DNA of 64,000 nt from an uncultured Clostridia bacterium (GCA_947599825.1 CANQFS010000003.1:2877-66876), one strand, 5' to 3'. Positions 4,520-59,795 are shown, numbered from the stretch's first letter. Made by a program: numbers and translations. The notes: generated by a model not told the origin, from the letters alone.

Positions 4520-4679
4520 AAGGACGGAGCTGTTTCTATAAATTTTATATACAAAATTGTTTCTATAAATTATTGCAAACAATATGTGAATTATTATTTT
4601 ATAGAAAATGCTCCGTCTCTAAAACATAACAGATTTCTATAAAATTTGTCCCGTCTCTAAAACATAACAGATTCTATAA
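4520..4679. repeat. Inverted plus direct repeats between convergent gene ends (degenerate members of the CCGTC(C/T)C family)
   Basis: aaggacggagctgtttctataaa (4520-) is inverted relative to ttatagaaaatgctccgtctc (4596-). ccgtctctaaaacataacagat(t)tctataa occurs twice, at 4613 and 4651. Confidence 0.8.
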
Positions 4680-5027
4680 TTATTTCATATTATCTAGTCC
4701 GCCTTCTATTTGGAACAAATTAGAATATCCTTGTTCTTGCAAAAGTTTTAGAGCTCTTTGGCTTCTACTTCCGGACTGGCAATAAATAATTATTGTATTT
4801 TCTTTATTTTTTAATAATTTTTCTGCATTTCTTTCTAAGTCATACAAGGGATAGTTAATACTTCCATCTAAATGACCTTCTTTATATTCTTGTGGGCTTC
4901 TTACGTCTACTAATATAGCCTGTTTATCATTTTTTAAAATTGTTTTTGCATTTTCATAATCTATATTATTTTCTTCACTATTTCGATATTTTCGAAAGAA
5001 ATGTTTTATATTTTCATATATTTTCAT
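4680..5027 (-). CDS. Rhodanese-domain sulfurtransferase
   Basis: 115-aa ORF with the active-site loop CQSGSRSQRA and VDVRSPQEYKEGHL typical of single-domain rhodaneses. Confidence 0.8.
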   Translation of the reverse strand: MKIYENIKHFFRKYRNSEENNIDYENAKTILKNDKQAILVDVRSPQEYKEGHLDGSINYPLYDLERNAEKLLKNKENTIIIYCQSGSRSQRALKLLQEQGYSNLFQIEGGLDNMK

Positions 5028-5218
5028 ATTTTCACTTCCTATCTTATAAAATCTCTAATAGTTTTTCATTTTATATCTATTTTTTATGCATTTTATTCTA
5101 ATTTATTTTTTAATAAAATATGATGCAAAAATAGACATTCTATTTTATTTTATGAAGAATGTCTATTTTTTGTTATTATTACTTTTCTCTGTTATATTAT
5201 TTATTGATATTTTTATTA

Positions 5219-5845
5219 TTAATTGTTACACAATTTTGCTATTGTTGTTAAAACGAACAATACAACAGCTATTGGCATTGTGAATTGATTTATTGGTAAT
5301 CTTGTAATAGCAAGTATTGCAAAATATAATAATTGAATTGCAACAATTCCTACTACTGTTTCTGCTAATGCTTTTGGCATACTTATTTCATTTCCTTTAT
5401 GCTTATATATTGCTATATAAATTATGAAATACACCATAACTAAAGCAAATGAAATAATAGTTGGTATGATATATGGTTTTACAATATCTATAATGCTTAC
5501 ACTTGGAATTTCTGTTACTAATATATCTTCTGTTTTATTTTCTATGCCATATTTTTCGTTTATTTTTGTATTTAAGCTTTCTAATTGCTCATCTGTAATA
5601 TCTTTTACACTAATAGCCACCATATCTTCGTATAATTCAACTTTTTGAATGACTATTTTTTGGTTTCCAACAATTTCTTTTACCATGTCATGTATTTCTT
5701 TATTTTCGAATTCTTTTCCAATGTAAATATCTACTTCTTTATGGCTACTATATGTAAAGCCAAGGTTGAAGCCCCAAATAGAAGCGACTACAATACCTAT
5801 TATTATAATAAGAGCAATAATTCCGATTCCTATTTTCTTTTTCAT
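5219..5845 (-). CDS. SecF-like membrane protein (short, divergent)
   Basis: 208 aa: an N-terminal TM segment, GFNLGFTY (compare the SecF GxNLGIDFTGG motif), a roughly 100-aa extracytoplasmic domain, then 3-4 TM segments. It lies directly downstream of the SecD-like gene. Confidence 0.45.
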   Translation of the reverse strand: MKKKIGIGIIALIIIIGIVVASIWGFNLGFTYSSHKEVDIYIGKEFENKEIHDMVKEIVGNQKIVIQKVELYEDMVAISVKDITDEQLESLNTKINEKYGIENKTEDILVTEIPSVSIIDIVKPYIIPTIISFALVMVYFIIYIAIYKHKGNEISMPKALAETVVGIVAIQLLYFAILAITRLPINQFTMPIAVVLFVLTTIAKLCNN

Positions 5846-5860
5846 GCTTCTTCCCTCCTT

Positions 5861-7282
5861 CTAATCTCTAAGCATAAGATTTGTTATGCTTATTTGATAT
5901 AATAGTGCAATGGCAATTCCCCAGAATAATACTACACCTATTGAAATCTCCATAAAAGTAAAGGTAATTGCAATAATTAAGGAAGGAATTAATATGATTA
6001 GTGCATTTTTTACTGCCTTTGTAATTTCTCCTTGTTTTAAAATACTATTCTCGATGAAGTAGCTAATAATTACACTTAGTGCTATTTCAATTAGACCTGC
6101 AATAGAAACTTCTACATTAAAATATCTTATTGCAATTAGTAAAAGTGCTATATAACCTACAAGAGAAATGCTTGCTAGAATTCCTTTTGTTTTATATTTA
6201 ATAATGAAATAAATCATTCCAATGGCTACAATAGCTATAGCTACACTTATTGAAATTGCAATTGATTGTGATGTAATATCTGAATAAATGAATTGATTTT
6301 GATCTACTACATAAACAACTGGCATTTTACCACTATCTACTAAGCTTGCTAAATTTGATGCTTCTAGTAAATATTCTTGTAATTGTTCTTGTGTTGCATT
6401 ACTTGAAGAACCTACTGATAATTGTAAAATTCCATTAGTAACTTCGTTATCAAAATAGGTTGTAAGTAACGTGTAATCATCTAACTTAAGGGCAATTTCT
6501 TTGGTAACTGTTTCTTGTTTATCTCCTGTTTGATCTGTACTTTGTGAATTTTCAGTTTGTTGTGCTTGCTCTGCATTTTGTGTTTCTTCAGTTTGTTGTT
6601 CATTTACATTTTGACTATCTTGTCCTTCTTCTGTTTGTGTTGTTTCAACATAAGTATTTGTTATATTCTTGAACTTTTCAGTTCCTTCTTTATTAAATTC
6701 AAAGTTAATGAAAACAGTAACTGTTCCATTAGAACTTCTTCCATAACCAGCACGTACTGATTTAATATCATCATTTGTCATTAAAACTTCGTTTGTGTCG
6801 TTATCTACTATTTCGAATTTTCCTTGTGAAGACATTTGCCCAACAATAACATCTGTGTTTTCATTTTCTGGAACTTCTAATATAATTGTTCCACTTTCGT
6901 TACTTTGTTTAATAATATAGTCAGTTACATTCATTTGACTTAATCTTTTTTCAACGACAGCTTTTACTTTTTCATAGTTTTCTTGTGTTAAAATTTCTTC
7001 ACTATTTACCTTTTTTTCCTCTGTTCTTGCGACTTCGGTTTCAGTGTCTGTGTCAGCAATGACATTTCCCTCTGCATCATATTTGATAGTTTCTTCTACT
7101 TCATCACTTACTTTTAAGACTATTTTTCTATATCCATTTAAGTCTCTTGCAAGTTGATATTCTGGCAAAATATTGATATATTGCCCTTTTTTTTGTATAA
7201 ATACACCTCCAAATGATATTATAGCTAGTAAAATAATTACTAAAATGATTAGTGTTAGTTTTAAACCTTTGTACTTTTTCAT
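5861..7282 (-). CDS. SecD-like membrane protein with Q/E/T-rich insert
   Basis: 473 aa: one TM segment, a large extracytoplasmic domain (LARDLNGYRKIVLKV, GKFEIVD, FINFEFNKEGTEKFKNIT resemble SecD P1 motifs), and 5 C-terminal TM segments. It carries a low-complexity TQTEEGQDSQNVNEQQTEETQNAEQAQQTEN insert. Confidence 0.5.
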   Translation of the reverse strand: MKKYKGLKLTLIILVIILLAIISFGGVFIQKKGQYINILPEYQLARDLNGYRKIVLKVSDEVEETIKYDAEGNVIADTDTETEVARTEEKKVNSEEILTQENYEKVKAVVEKRLSQMNVTDYIIKQSNESGTIILEVPENENTDVIVGQMSSQGKFEIVDNDTNEVLMTNDDIKSVRAGYGRSSNGTVTVFINFEFNKEGTEKFKNITNTYVETTQTEEGQDSQNVNEQQTEETQNAEQAQQTENSQSTDQTGDKQETVTKEIALKLDDYTLLTTYFDNEVTNGILQLSVGSSSNATQEQLQEYLLEASNLASLVDSGKMPVVYVVDQNQFIYSDITSQSIAISISVAIAIVAIGMIYFIIKYKTKGILASISLVGYIALLLIAIRYFNVEVSIAGLIEIALSVIISYFIENSILKQGEITKAVKNALIILIPSLIIAITFTFMEISIGVVLFWGIAIALLYQISITNLMLRD

Positions 7283-7391
7283 TTTTATTATCTCCTTTCT
7301 TGTCCTTCGCTATATCAAATTTGTAATACCTTTATTTTATGTAATATATTTGAGTTTTTTAATAGGTTATACTCATAAATACCTTTTTTAC

Positions 7392-59163: not shown

Positions 59164-59242
59164 TTTTCATACGTCCTTTCTTGTTTTACACTGTATTGAT
59201 AAGTGCTTACTTTTTAATTCTATGCAAATATACATTTCTATT

Positions 59243-59479
59243 TTATAACACTTTTATGATTTCTCCTATGTCTTTTCCTTGTGTCTTTGGAATTTGAAGA
59301 ATTTCGAATTTTGCTATTTTATCTCCAAATTTAATTTCTACAATGTCTCCTACTTTTACCTCATAGCTTGGTTTTACTATTTTTCCATTGACAACTACTC
59401 TTCCACCATCTGCTGCTTCATTGGCAACAGTTCTTCGCTTAATTACTCTTGATACTTTTAAAAATTTATCTATTCTCAT
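59243..59479 (-). CDS. rqcP: S4-domain RNA-binding protein (YabO/RqcP-like)
   Basis: MRIDKFLKVSRVIKRRTVANEAADGGRVVVNGKIVKPSYEVKVGD closely parallels the B. subtilis YabO N-terminus. Confidence 0.7.
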   Translation of the reverse strand: MRIDKFLKVSRVIKRRTVANEAADGGRVVVNGKIVKPSYEVKVGDIVEIKFGDKIAKFEILQIPKTQGKDIGEIIKVL

Positions 59480-59637
59480 TTAGACCTTCTTTCTTTTCTG
59501 TACGTATTTGTGTTTTATATTTTATATTTTTACATATTGCTTGTACTTTCGAAAATTTTCTTGTCTTTTTCTCTTTCTTATTTGCAACATTATATCACAA
59601 ATAATAACATCTCACAATACAAAAATAAAAAAAAGAA

Positions 59638-59705
59638 AGGGCGTCCCAAATGGCAATTTATTGCCAAAAAGAAGCGTCCCCCTATTTAAAAGGAGCGTCC
59701 CTCCT
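59638..59705. repeat. Three GCGTCCC motifs (GGGCGTCCCAAATGGCAATTTATTGCC..., AGCGTCCCCCTATTTA, AGCGTCCCTCCTATTTA)
   Basis: Read directly in the gap between the ATPase gene and the rqcP-like gene. Confidence 0.75.
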
Positions 59706-59764
59706 ATTTACCTCTTATTTAATTCTTTTTGCGTTATACTTTTTACTTATTTTTTTACTTTTTT

Positions 59765-59795
59765 GGAAAGATTTGGACGCGTCCCAAATCTTTCC
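59765..59795. repeat. GTCCC-core palindrome, type A (GGAAAGATTTGGACGCGTCCCAAATCTTTCC)
   Basis: Self-complementary apart from one base. It ends exactly at the ATPase stop codon. Confidence 0.9.

Follow-up and report, generated by a model that had tools for sequence, protein, structure and literature searches.

Elements in the window

The stretch of DNA analysed here, referred to below as the window, comprises 64 kb of the chromosome of an uncultured spore-forming Clostridia lineage, with a GC content of 29%. Dispersed along it, at a density of about one per 3 kb, are short G/C-containing palindromes. A first-pass annotation had proposed that these stand out from the AT-rich DNA as a real repeat population, and both word enrichment and a repeat search bear this out. 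GGGACG is the top over-represented 6-mer by base composition (22 observed, 1.6 expected); the shorter GGGAC occurs 49 times against 22.4 expected, RGGGACRS 11 times against 2.0, and TTTGGGAC 13 times against 1.0, a count reached by none of 100 shuffles. The repeat search recovered all four repeat types, A to D, at the coordinates claimed for them: Type A as families D12/D13 (starts at 9513, 9569, 10384, 10457, 26708, and 59764), Type B as families I2/I5/I8, Type C as family D10 (39377 and 57600, plus a 35-nt tandem array), and Type D as family D16, with intact copies at 47602 and 50409 and degenerate ones at 4595 and 43484. Also present are the GGGCGTCCC variants at 8201 and 59638. Two copies, the D-like palindrome at 26205-26240 and the decayed D copy at 43484-43518, are additions to the earlier list. 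The elements are as follows.

4510..4679, minus strand: degenerate Type D cluster, directly 3′ of the rhodanese gene stop (4680), made up of two GAGACGG(A/G) units plus a GCTCCGTCC unit in inverted orientation
8201..8250, minus strand: GGGACGCCCC...GGGACACCCC variant with an inner CGTTCC/GGAACG hairpin, overlapping the DUF3792 gene stop (8210); this element type is also found in L011 and L030
9514..9601, no single strand: REPIN-like inverted doublet of Type A (9514-9544, plus; 9571-9601, minus), family I10, 11 nt past the DUF1287 gene stop; one long hairpin, z = −11.6
10385..10489, no single strand: inverted doublet of Type A (10385-10415, plus; 10459-10489, minus), family I4, between the sigma-factor and DUF1287 genes; z = −7.9
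10507..10549, minus strand: Type B unit providing the final codons and TAG stop of the sigma-factor gene (10540)
21414..21480, plus strand: Type B, two GGGACGTTTC units and a GTCCCTTTTGG arm, antisense, immediately 5′ of the RBS of the AI-2E transporter gene
26205..26240, plus strand: D-like palindrome AAATTTTAGGGACGGGCTAAAAATTT; this variant is also found in L011
26709..26739, minus strand: Type A singleton within a perfect palindrome with a 21-bp stem, 11 nt past the holA stop
39384..39433, minus strand: Type C, GGGGACAGTCCCAAATTG palindrome and GGGACAATTTGTACC end, giving a small DUF1653-like ORF its last codons and stop (39404), just upstream of ileS
43484..43518, minus strand: decayed copy of Type D with 74% identity to the reference copy, adjoining the CAP/SH3 gene stop (43520)
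44481..44510, minus strand: Type B hairpin GTTACCTTTGGGGACGTTTCCTAAAGGTAAC followed by T6, including the TAA stop of the GIY-YIG gene (44492); z = −6.2
47602..47636, minus strand: Type D, 100% identical over 35 nt to 50409-50443, giving the GH3 gene its TAG stop (47626)
50409..50443, minus strand: Type D, 2 nt past the TspO stop; the orthologous site in L011 holds a palindromic variant
53195..53245, plus strand: Type B, antisense, just 5′ of the RBS of the HD-domain gene
53381..53432, minus strand: two tandem Type B units providing the dnaE C-terminus TFGDVS and stop (53410)
53654..53712, minus strand: Type B, encoding the peptide PLGAPLGTFPKGTSVPFGT in frame within the dnaE linker that follows the OB domain
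57088..57112, minus strand: end fragment of Type C in the spacer from the HTH gene stop to the dnaE start
57607..57730, no single strand: Type C end and 2.7 tandem 35-nt units, each unit containing the 17-bp palindrome TTTGGGAC-T-GTCCCAAA; 3 nt past the FAD-protein gene stop, upstream of the HTH gene
59638..59710, minus strand: three GGGACGC(N)YC units (GGGCGTCCC variants), downstream of a Type A copy
59765..59795, minus strand: Type A singleton, 1 nt past the TAA stop of the P-type ATPase gene

Strong hairpins are the property of Type A and of some Type B copies (z from −5 to −11.6), and each of the two window doublets, 9514/9571 and 10385/10459, folds as one hairpin (z from −7.9 to −11.6). 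Type D did not fold as a hairpin in the folding z-score test. What is conserved is the core GGGAC(G/A) inside the hairpin; GTAG at the 5′ hairpin foot is not conserved in any type. The reverse complement of GACG, CGTC, sits at the dyad centre in Type A and in the loop in Types B and D.

Type A extends well beyond the window. At least nine species-level MAGs carry dispersed copies of the 31-nt palindrome, both as singletons and as REPIN-like inverted doublets. A search with its exact 24-nt core hits 48 loci, spread over nine such MAGs of uncultured Clostridia/Clostridiaceae and numbering as many as ~20 in a single MAG; allowing up to two mismatches yields ~85 copies in the 0.4 Mb of DNA analysed. 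Doublets have a spacing of ~70 nt and a conserved AT-rich linker, and their arms co-vary in an alignment, as in the pairing of GTTCAAAA with TTTTGAAC; 12 doublets lie in loci outside the window. Type C had no occurrence outside the window in the loci searched.

Gene ends, reading frames, and orthologous sites

As had been claimed, the elements concentrate on gene ends: 13 of the 22 either overlap the stop codon of the minus-strand gene upstream of them or come within 15 nt of it, compared with 10% of random intergenic 35-mers. Several become part of the upstream ORF, furnishing the last codons and stop of dnaE, the sigma-factor, GIY-YIG, and GH3 genes, and the small DUF1653-like ORF. For most Type A copies in other genomes, the centre falls 19-47 nt past a stop, and the GGGACG-first orientation matches that of the upstream gene in ~32 of 37 clear cases by manual count. 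Neither the apposition to stop codons nor the orientation bias is explained by a mobility model alone. Both would be natural for a lineage-specific terminator or mRNA 3′-end module, shaped by RNA-level selection rather than by DNA mobility, whose apex would be read by an RNA-binding factor. The strong hairpins fit such a module too, the most terminator-like copy in the window being 44481-44510, a textbook hairpin followed by T6.

The earlier description of hairpins followed by T runs holds for its first half in Type A and some Type B copies, but Type D is unfolded, and terminator scans list just four window elements (10386-10414, 10536-10549, 59678-59695, and 59765-59795), of which only 10386-10414 lies on the sense strand with a truly T-rich tail. 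Among Type A copies, only 27 of 83 carry a T-rich tail (at least six T in the next 8 nt). Copies in the opposite orientation sit just 5′ of RBSs (21414 and 53195), others lie inside dnaE or in tandem arrays, and other window genes possess ordinary unique terminators, for example at 12439-12469. Rfam covariance models gave no family match, only sub-threshold miRNA-precursor models on long hairpins. Moreover, a terminator module leaves unexplained the inverted pair of copies around a transposase gene described below. We consider it improbable as the identity of the elements; termination is at most a secondary property, and plausibly a side effect only.

Comparison of orthologous regions, as the first-pass annotation had suggested, uncovered presence/absence differences at element sites between relatives. 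In relatives the dnaE product ends in KCN*, IIETGN*, or NYI*; in the window this native end is replaced by Type B. The in-frame Type B of the dnaE linker (53654..53712) is common to close orthologues and absent from more distant ones, and an independent in-frame Type B insertion, adding 14 aa, occupies another dnaE position in L054. The spacer between dnaE and the HD-domain gene measures 250 nt in the window versus 96, 107, and 24 nt in relatives; at the site of 53195..53245 there is a B-like unit in L053 and none in L054 or L055. GGGAC is altogether missing from 18 kb of the relative L055. Four same-species contigs, at 99.8-99.98% identity, displayed no insertion polymorphism among them.

The same relatives bear on a third proposal, that a single DNA-binding protein uses the elements as operators or phased binding sites. 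The candidate is a membrane-anchored XRE-type HTH protein encoded at 57121-57519, in a gene flanked by Type C arrays. Upstream of it, the 17-bp perfect palindrome is repeated three times with 35-bp spacing, and GGGAC/GCGAC words in Type C recur every ~10 bp, both as expected of phased binding sites. However, orthologues of the HTH gene in L053 (77% identical) and L054 (74%) have spacers of 15-40 nt with no GGGAC nearby, which argues against the proposal. Furthermore, most copies occupy the 3′ ends of unrelated housekeeping genes, not promoters, and some reside within coding sequence. With the sites missing at orthologous HTH loci, the operator proposal was rejected, and we accord it very little probability.

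A Y1 transposase gene between inverted repeat copies

The 64-kb window itself contains no transposase gene. The search for a RAYT/IS200-like transposase elsewhere, recommended at the outset, was positive in related genomes, where a Y1 gene lies between inverted copies of the window's own repeats. In L035, the ORF at 1080-1838 (~250 aa) scores 43.6 bits against Pfam Y1_Tnp PF01797 (cut-off 23). Its best NCBIfam match is NF047646, REP-associated tyrosine transposase, at 76.5 bits over the whole profile (E = 1.9e-21), slightly short of the cut-off of 80, and its best PDB match is 4ER8, E. coli TnpArep. Two motifs, N-H-x-H (the HUH motif) and Y-I-H-x-N-P-V, do not vary across an alignment of 16 homologues. 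At residues 224-251, the protein carries a C-terminal HTH matching HTH_3, HTH_26, and Sigma70_r4, and this block is conserved in the homologue alignment.

The flanks of the gene are directly visible at several loci. In L035, a Type A copy precedes the gene by 134 nt, and a Type A variant in inverted orientation directly follows its stop. An inverted Type A pair on both sides of the gene recurs in L145/146 and L148, and also in L056, where the downstream copy is truncated. L021 retains the upstream copy only, the transposase gene being cut off by the locus end, and in L147 both flanking copies share the same orientation. Several of the 1-kb contigs among L021/L056/L145-L148 end inside the repeat. 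In L057-L063, too, inverted repeat copies lie on both sides of the transposase gene. The repeat co-varies with the enzyme: the hairpin that flanks homologues at 53-54% identity, GAGATTTTTGGGACGCACCCGAAAATCTC, differs but keeps the core, and it is inverted at the stop.

This association persists at greater distance. Among 57 metagenomic homologues at 30-54% identity, 49 have GGGAC in the 300 nt upstream, where 6 have the reverse word, and 43 have GTCCC in the 150 nt downstream, where 8 have the reverse word; the background is 0.095 per 300 nt. An inverted repeat of at least 12 nt connects both flanks in 37 of the 57. Across 49 clade loci, consisting of 44 metagenomic homologues together with L035, L056, L057, L060, and L145, GGGAC falls within a perfect stem of at least 6 bp in 53%, versus 8% of random positions, and the enclosing stems have many different sequences. 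Some survey flanks match the remaining types of the window: GGGACGGAGC corresponds to Type D and GGGACGCCCCTTTTTG to the 8240 variant, GGGGACGTTCC is Type B-like, and GGGGACAG is Type C-like. Types B, C, and D are tied to the transposase only via the shared core and these look-alike flanks in other lineages.

A REP/REPIN-type reading and its relation to known systems

The elements are probably a REP/REPIN-RAYT population, TIRtron-like in character, of miniature mobile palindromes. Among the readings raised by the first-pass annotation, that of REP/MITE-like mobile palindromes is the one that gained support, and it is the best because related genomes have a tyrosine (HUH) transposase gene with these repeats, in inverted orientation, on its flanks. 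Each element consists of an AT-rich stem, its sequence varying by sub-family, with GGGAC(G/A) conserved in the apical part, where it may serve as the recognition motif of the transposase. Most likely, a host-encoded Y1 (HUH) transposase of RAYT/TIRYT type cleaves and rejoins the elements while they are folded as single-stranded DNA hairpins. This enzyme has ~250 aa and a C-terminal HTH, and in relatives its own gene lies between two inverted repeat copies, arranged like a REPtron. New copies would survive at the least harmful sites: directly past stops, between co-directional genes, and in flexible protein linkers. In linkers they would either be read through in frame or replace the final codons and stop. 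Some settled copies probably serve as transcript 3′ hairpins, which would be their RNA-level function.

Published descriptions of REP/RAYT and TIRtron systems agree with this anatomy (PMC3733652, PMC3337134, PMC6006769). The REP/REPIN-RAYT systems (REPtrons) of Enterobacteria and Pseudomonas share several features with the present elements. In both, a short and imperfect palindrome is repeated many times outside genes, chiefly downstream of them, and paired inverted copies fold together into a single long hairpin. In both, two inverted repeats enclose a Y1/HUH transposase gene, here in related genomes only, and each transposase lineage has a repeat variant of its own. The synteny of the transposase gene is also conserved, with the RAYT gene beside ppdK in L057-L063, which partly supports vertical inheritance of a single-copy gene. 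Unlike in those systems, there is no 5′ GTAG tag, GGGAC(G/A) being conserved in the hairpin apex instead; the transposase is ~100 aa longer and ends in an HTH; and the host belongs to the Clostridia, whereas published RAYT groups 2 and 3, those associated with REPINs, come from Gammaproteobacteria (PMC5581495). The conserved motif in the hairpin apex, the HTH on the transposase, and the Clostridia host are what is new here. The initial remark that this is not a named repeat family was fair: the elements match neither the GTAG nor the CGTC definition of REPs.

Terminator-associated uptake words, the Neisseria DUS and Haemophilus USS, offer a parallel in their short conserved word arranged as inverted repeats downstream of genes. 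Uptake specificity is not known from Firmicutes. That the core was built up as a short word by a biased process such as DNA uptake, not by transposition, is scarcely credible: one core GGGAC(G) across several sequence contexts, often as inverted pairs after genes and at the observed density, would suit it, but the units are long and discrete, fall into defined sub-families with 30-60 nt of flanking identity between copies, differ by indel-type presence or absence with discrete length differences at orthologous sites, and have a cognate transposase gene bracketed by copies.

Also close are TIRtrons/TIRYT (Di Nocera et al., 2013; PMC3733652) and Y1 subclass 2.1 (Quentin et al., 2018; PMC6006769), which share a RAYT-like Y1 gene with a C-terminal HTH. 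TIRtrons are likewise flanked by inverted repeats with a common G-rich motif, the published consensus GGGGWSAS, which several survey flanks fit (GGGGACAG or GGGGACAC), and in some species these repeats reach moderate abundance as families made up of dimers and clusters (PMC3733652, PMC6006769). In the window, however, literal GGGGWSAS is not enriched (2 vs. 1.7 expected), unlike the related RGGGACRS; the core is GGGACG. The present repeats are further set apart from TIRtrons as self-complementary hairpins at high density that include in-frame intragenic copies; Quentin et al. described no REP-like structures beside subclass 2.1 genes (PMC6006769). The main texts of PMC3733652 and PMC6006769 name no Firmicutes examples.

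Finally, the reverse complement of the core, CGTCCC, recalls the CGTC-tagged REPs, including Rickettsia RPE-4 and RPE-6 (PMC3733652). In these, the tetranucleotide is an unpaired terminal tag, the adjacent stem has 8-9 bp, the loop 4-5 nt, and the tail is CCA; no transposase is known for them (PMC3733652). Here CGTC is not a terminal tag but part of the loop or of the dyad centre. Common to both are AT-rich stems, head-to-head dimers, and in-frame insertions into proteins, the products of replication genes among them.

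Repeat families and their distribution

The palindromic repeats of the window share a GGGAC/GTCCC core, and the over-representation of this core reported in the first-pass annotation is genuine: TTTGGGAC occurs 13 times against 1.0 expected, GGGAC 49 times against 22.4, and GGGACG, the most over-represented hexamer of the window as judged by base composition, 22 times against 1.6. GGGAC is also the BsmFI site. A repeat search of the window recovered every family named in that annotation, in the same positions. Type A is a 31-nt imperfect palindrome, GGAAAGATTTGGGACGCGTCCAAA(A/T)(G/C)TTTCC, with an extra G in one arm; four of its six copies in the window form two inverted doublets. 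Type B reads CC(W)TTGGGGACGTTTCC(W)AA(W)GG...ATCTGTCCCTTTTGG. Type C joins a GGTACAAATTGTCCC end to the palindrome TTTGGGAC-T-GTCCCAAA, and one of its sites bears a 35-nt tandem array of 2.7 units. Type D is represented by two copies with 100% identity over 35 nt, and the analysis added two related copies to the earlier list:

26205-26240, a D-like palindrome
43484-43518, a decayed Type D copy

The families are spread over several species. A scan with the 24-nt Type A core, using one genome per species, found 48 loci, all in nine animal-gut MAGs assigned to uncultured Clostridia/Clostridiaceae, up to about 20 of them in one MAG alone; with two mismatches allowed, these loci plus the window hold ~85 Type A copies. 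The copies are mostly centred 19-47 nt past a stop codon, and in about 32 of 37 unambiguous cases (our own count) the orientation that places the GGGACG arm first matches the upstream gene. Doublets are frequent, with ~70 nt spacing, a conserved AT-rich linker, and two arms that co-vary in an alignment of doublets (A2), an arrangement that corresponds to the REPINs of Pseudomonas (PMC3337134, PMC3116915). The same MAGs also contain Type B and additional families that carry GGGACG; Type C was seen in the window only, among the related loci compared. The case for variable but complementary flanks around Type A is weak, as perfect pairing extends past the 31-nt core by a mean of 1.8 bp, compared to 0.94 in controls, and reaches at least 5 bp in only 12% of copies. 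Nor does a phage origin fit, the cores being essentially missing from 2.9 million viral contigs (no match for Type A, one for Type B). The first-pass annotation had recognized no named family, and Rfam likewise returned none for the repeats at gathering or E-value threshold, only miRNA-like hairpin noise.

Two short motifs were encountered alongside. A 10-11-nt unit of the 5′ arm, GGAAAGATTT(G), stands in tandem, one to three times, beside ~15 of the 85 Type A copies (window 9602-9612 and 10490-10500; related loci L006, L013, L025, L027, L048 and others), possibly as slippage products or extra binding sites. Several MAGs (loci L010, L012, L013, L038, L041, L047) also share a distinct conserved motif of 45 nt, GTAG(M)(W)TTGGGGACGGTTCGTAATCGGAAACAAGATAGAGAAGAA, which resembles a structured RNA leader more than it does a REP.

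Position at gene ends and insertion in dnaE

The proximity of the elements to stop codons is pronounced, as had been claimed: 13 of 22 lie within 15 nt of, or across, the stop of the upstream gene, compared to 10% of random intergenic 35-mers. In five genes, namely dnaE, the sigma-factor, GIY-YIG and GH3 genes, and a small DUF1653-like ORF upstream of ileS, the element supplies the last codons together with the stop. The same annotation described hairpins followed by T runs and entertained a lineage-specific terminator. Its hairpin half stands for Type A singletons and doublets and for the Type B copy at 44481, all very stable as single strands (z -5.3 to -11.6), but not for Type D, which forms no hairpin in the same test. 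As terminators alone, the elements are weakly explained: a T-rich tail follows only 27 of 83 Type A copies, some copies precede ribosome-binding sites in the opposite orientation, others sit within dnaE, and few pass a terminator scan, which speaks against canonical terminators as the identity of the repeats. Survivorship is the best reading of the clustering at stop codons. Hairpins that directly follow a stop, or linker copies read through in frame, would have low cost, such that copies landing there would survive; an added benefit as a transcript 3′ hairpin may contribute, and the terminator proposal would at most describe a side effect.

Comparison of orthologous regions revealed that presence or absence of the elements differs between relatives around dnaE, which supports their being insertions. 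The window DnaE terminates in ...GKENC-TFGDVS*, its final six codons and stop coming from Type B; the termini in relatives are KCN*, IIETGN*, and NYI*. In the window, dnaE and the HD-domain gene are separated by a spacer of 250 nt that has Type B at either end, versus 96, 107, and 24 nt in three relatives, one of which has a B-like unit at the same place ahead of the HD-domain gene while the other two have none. Type B also lies in frame within the variable linker after the DnaE OB domain, where it encodes PLGAPLGTFPKGTSVPFGT; in an alignment of DnaE orthologues (A1), this copy is common to close orthologues, decayed in one, and missing from more distant ones. A separate in-frame Type B insertion, in opposite orientation and in another DnaE loop, adds 14 aa in relative L054 that are missing from the window and from L053 and L055, the two other relatives compared. 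GGGAC is wholly missing from 18 kb of L055, a relative of 24% G+C. Four same-species contigs, inspected for recent mobility, had no variation at the elements, indicating that copies are stable over short timescales. In many relatives, dnaE itself appears as two ORFs split near a lysine-rich GKKKLDVMAKERE stretch (L053 7852-11440, L054 7261-10873, L055 4671-8229; proteins P0002, P0003, P0008, P0009 and others), and either homopolymer errors in assembly or a genuine frameshift site could explain this; in the window, dnaE is a single ORF of 1213 aa.

A further early proposal, operators for a DNA-binding protein, fails for Type C. Orthologues of the HTH gene that these copies flank, 74-77% identical, have no such sites, so Type C is not the operator of its neighbor. 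Integron attC sites, parS/NBS-type chromosome sites, and R-M sites are unsuited in gene content, copy number, and anatomy.

Y1 transposases flanked by the repeats

The mobile-palindrome reading, REP- or MITE-like, is backed by Y1 transposase genes with flanking repeats, found in related genomes when the suggested search for a RAYT/IS200-like enzyme was run. Tblastn with RAYT and IS608 TnpA probes, which served as a lead only, detected no transposase gene in the window and pointed to ORFs adjoining Type A copies in L035 and L021, two related loci; L015 and L020 gave weak, spurious matches inside a GNAT gene and an RsmE-like gene. The 252-aa L035 protein (encoded at 1080-1838 of that locus) scores 43.6 bits against Pfam Y1_Tnp (cut-off 23), and its best NCBIfam match is the REP-associated tyrosine transposase model, covered over the full profile at 76.5 bits, slightly short of the cut-off of 80. 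It bears a C-terminal HTH, and its closest solved structure is E. coli TnpArep, aligned across the catalytic-tyrosine motif. Both its HUH and its Y-I-H-x-N-P-V motif are invariant across 16 homologues.

In L035, a Type A copy lies 134 nt upstream of the transposase gene and an inverted Type A variant right behind its stop. Six more contigs have an equivalent layout, except that both copies share one orientation in L147 and only the upstream copy is visible in L021. In some of these contigs, the TAG stop of the gene is the first triplet of the repeat. Several 1-kb transposase contigs terminate within the repeat, as expected where assembly breaks at a dispersed repeat. Transposase and repeat co-vary: homologues at 53-54% identity retain the position beside ppdK and carry on their flanks another hairpin built on this core, GAGATTTTTGGGACGCACCCGAAAATCTC, likewise inverted at the stop.

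A survey of 57 metagenomic homologues (30-54% identity) generalizes the arrangement. GGGAC occurs in the 300 nt upstream of 49 of the 57 (reverse word, 6) and GTCCC in the 150 nt downstream of 43 (reverse word, 8), both together in 41, over a background of 0.095 per 300 nt; an inverted repeat of at least 12 nt joins the two flanks in 37. Among 49 transposase-clade loci, comprising 44 metagenomic homologues and five closer-relative loci, the upstream GGGAC lies within a perfect stem of at least 6 bp in 53%, versus 8% at random positions. The enclosing stems comprise many unrelated sequences, so the clade-wide pattern is a lineage-specific stem with a conserved GGGAC(G/A) in its apical part. Flank variants in the survey reproduce the other types of the window: GGGACGGAGC (Type D), GGGACGCCCCTTTTTG (the variant at 8240), GGGGACGTTCC (Type B-like), and GGGGACAG (Type C-like).

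The elements are very probably REP/REPIN-type miniature palindromes belonging to a Y1 transposase of the RAYT/TIRYT kind. The enzyme would move them as single-stranded hairpins, presumably reading GGGAC, with its HTH likely participating. REP/REPIN-RAYT systems are described nearly exclusively from Proteobacteria, and the HTH-bearing Y1 subclass is not known to have an accepted repeat partner; the literature searched contains no description of such repeats in Clostridia.

In anatomy the elements resemble REPtrons and REPINs, but the REP-defining GTAG tag is missing. Published CGTC-tagged REPs, including Rickettsia RPE-4 and RPE-6, carry a terminal, unpaired tag and have no known transposase (PMC3733652). 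The window core is CGTC on the other strand, yet it lies at the dyad centre or in a loop, and membership of that superfamily is rejected on architecture. The closest published kind is the TIRtron/TIRYT, HTH-bearing RAYT-like genes whose flanking inverted repeats share GGGGWSAS (PMC3733652), equivalent to Y1 subclass 2.1 (PMC6006769). Literal GGGGWSAS is not enriched in the window (2 versus 1.7 expected); the related word RGGGACRS is (11 versus 2.0). Here repeats flank the Y1 genes, whereas Quentin et al. found no REP-like structures beside subclass 2.1 genes, and the HTH-bearing subclass occurs in about 15% of strains (PMC6006769). Bertels et al. tied REPs only to RAYT groups 2 and 3 and noted group 1 in Clostridia (PMC5581495).

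In uncultured gut Clostridia, the case ties the HTH-bearing subclass to hairpin repeats present as dense populations. It would widen the host range of REP/REPIN-RAYT-type systems, supply a defined biochemical substrate (a 31-nt palindrome with a GGGACG core), account for MAG assemblies of these lineages breaking at repeat sites, and show repeats remodelling protein C-termini and linkers, including those of dnaE. It also cautions annotators that, in these genomes, repeats are the source of numerous stop codons and of short extensions at protein C-termini. More tentatively, and with doubt outweighing confidence, the large HTH-bearing Y1 subclass (TIRYT, subclass 2.1; group 1-like), which reportedly lacks REP partners, might act genome-wide on GGGAC-apex hairpins as its cognate substrates. 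If true, Firmicutes would harbor REPIN-like, vertically kept replicator populations that regularly alter the 3′ ends of genes and enter replication proteins by in-frame insertion; recognition would depend on a motif conserved in the loop instead of a foot tetranucleotide, and the CGTC core would hint at the missing enzyme of orphan CGTC REPs and Rickettsia RPEs.

Host chromosome and other features

Nearly every gene is encoded on the minus strand of the window, which has 28-32% G+C and a negative GC skew over its whole length. Pfam assigned dnaE, ileS, holA, clpX/clpP, trigger factor, a sigma factor, and the spore germination protease Gpr, a gene set that marks the chromosome as that of a spore former within Clostridia. 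When the window DUF1287 protein was looked up by exact match, only metagenome contigs were returned, which match the window at 99.8-99.98% identity; among MAG fragments the nearest, L011 from CANRLO01, has an identity of about 93%. At L011 760-960, a TspO gene is joined to a homologue of window gene 17195-17764 (compare window 50890-50990 and 17090-17230). The junction carries a D-like hairpin and a Type A copy, and reflects either chimeric assembly or rearrangement at a repeat.

Two matches to structured RNAs lie on the minus strand. A full-length skipping-rope RNA (46988-47069; Rfam RF02924, 70.6 bits versus a gathering score of 36.7) sits between a GNAT gene and a 664-aa gene. A T-box leader (39711-39966; 74 bits, below the gathering score of 93, E = 4e-14) is followed not by ileS directly but by the small DUF1653-like ORF (39404-39685, minus strand) with its Type C-built end, behind which ileS starts without an obvious Shine-Dalgarno sequence. 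Directly 5′ of tRNA-Leu(CAA) (21839-21921, plus strand), two tandem 92-nt units (21653-21836, 93-98% identical) each open with the first ~19 nt of that tRNA and continue into different, hairpin-rich sequence; tRNA-like remnants and a small RNA are both conceivable identities. A 16-nt unit repeated about 23 times in tandem (29843-30212, T-rich on the plus strand) forms a non-coding array that fills a 437-nt gap between two minus-strand genes, with no minus-strand ORF through it. Finally, two paralogous minus-strand genes of about 420 aa (40273-41550 and 42069-43337) have in common a 300-nt block at 90% identity, both contain 63-nt internal repeats, and their products look like coiled-coil proteins.
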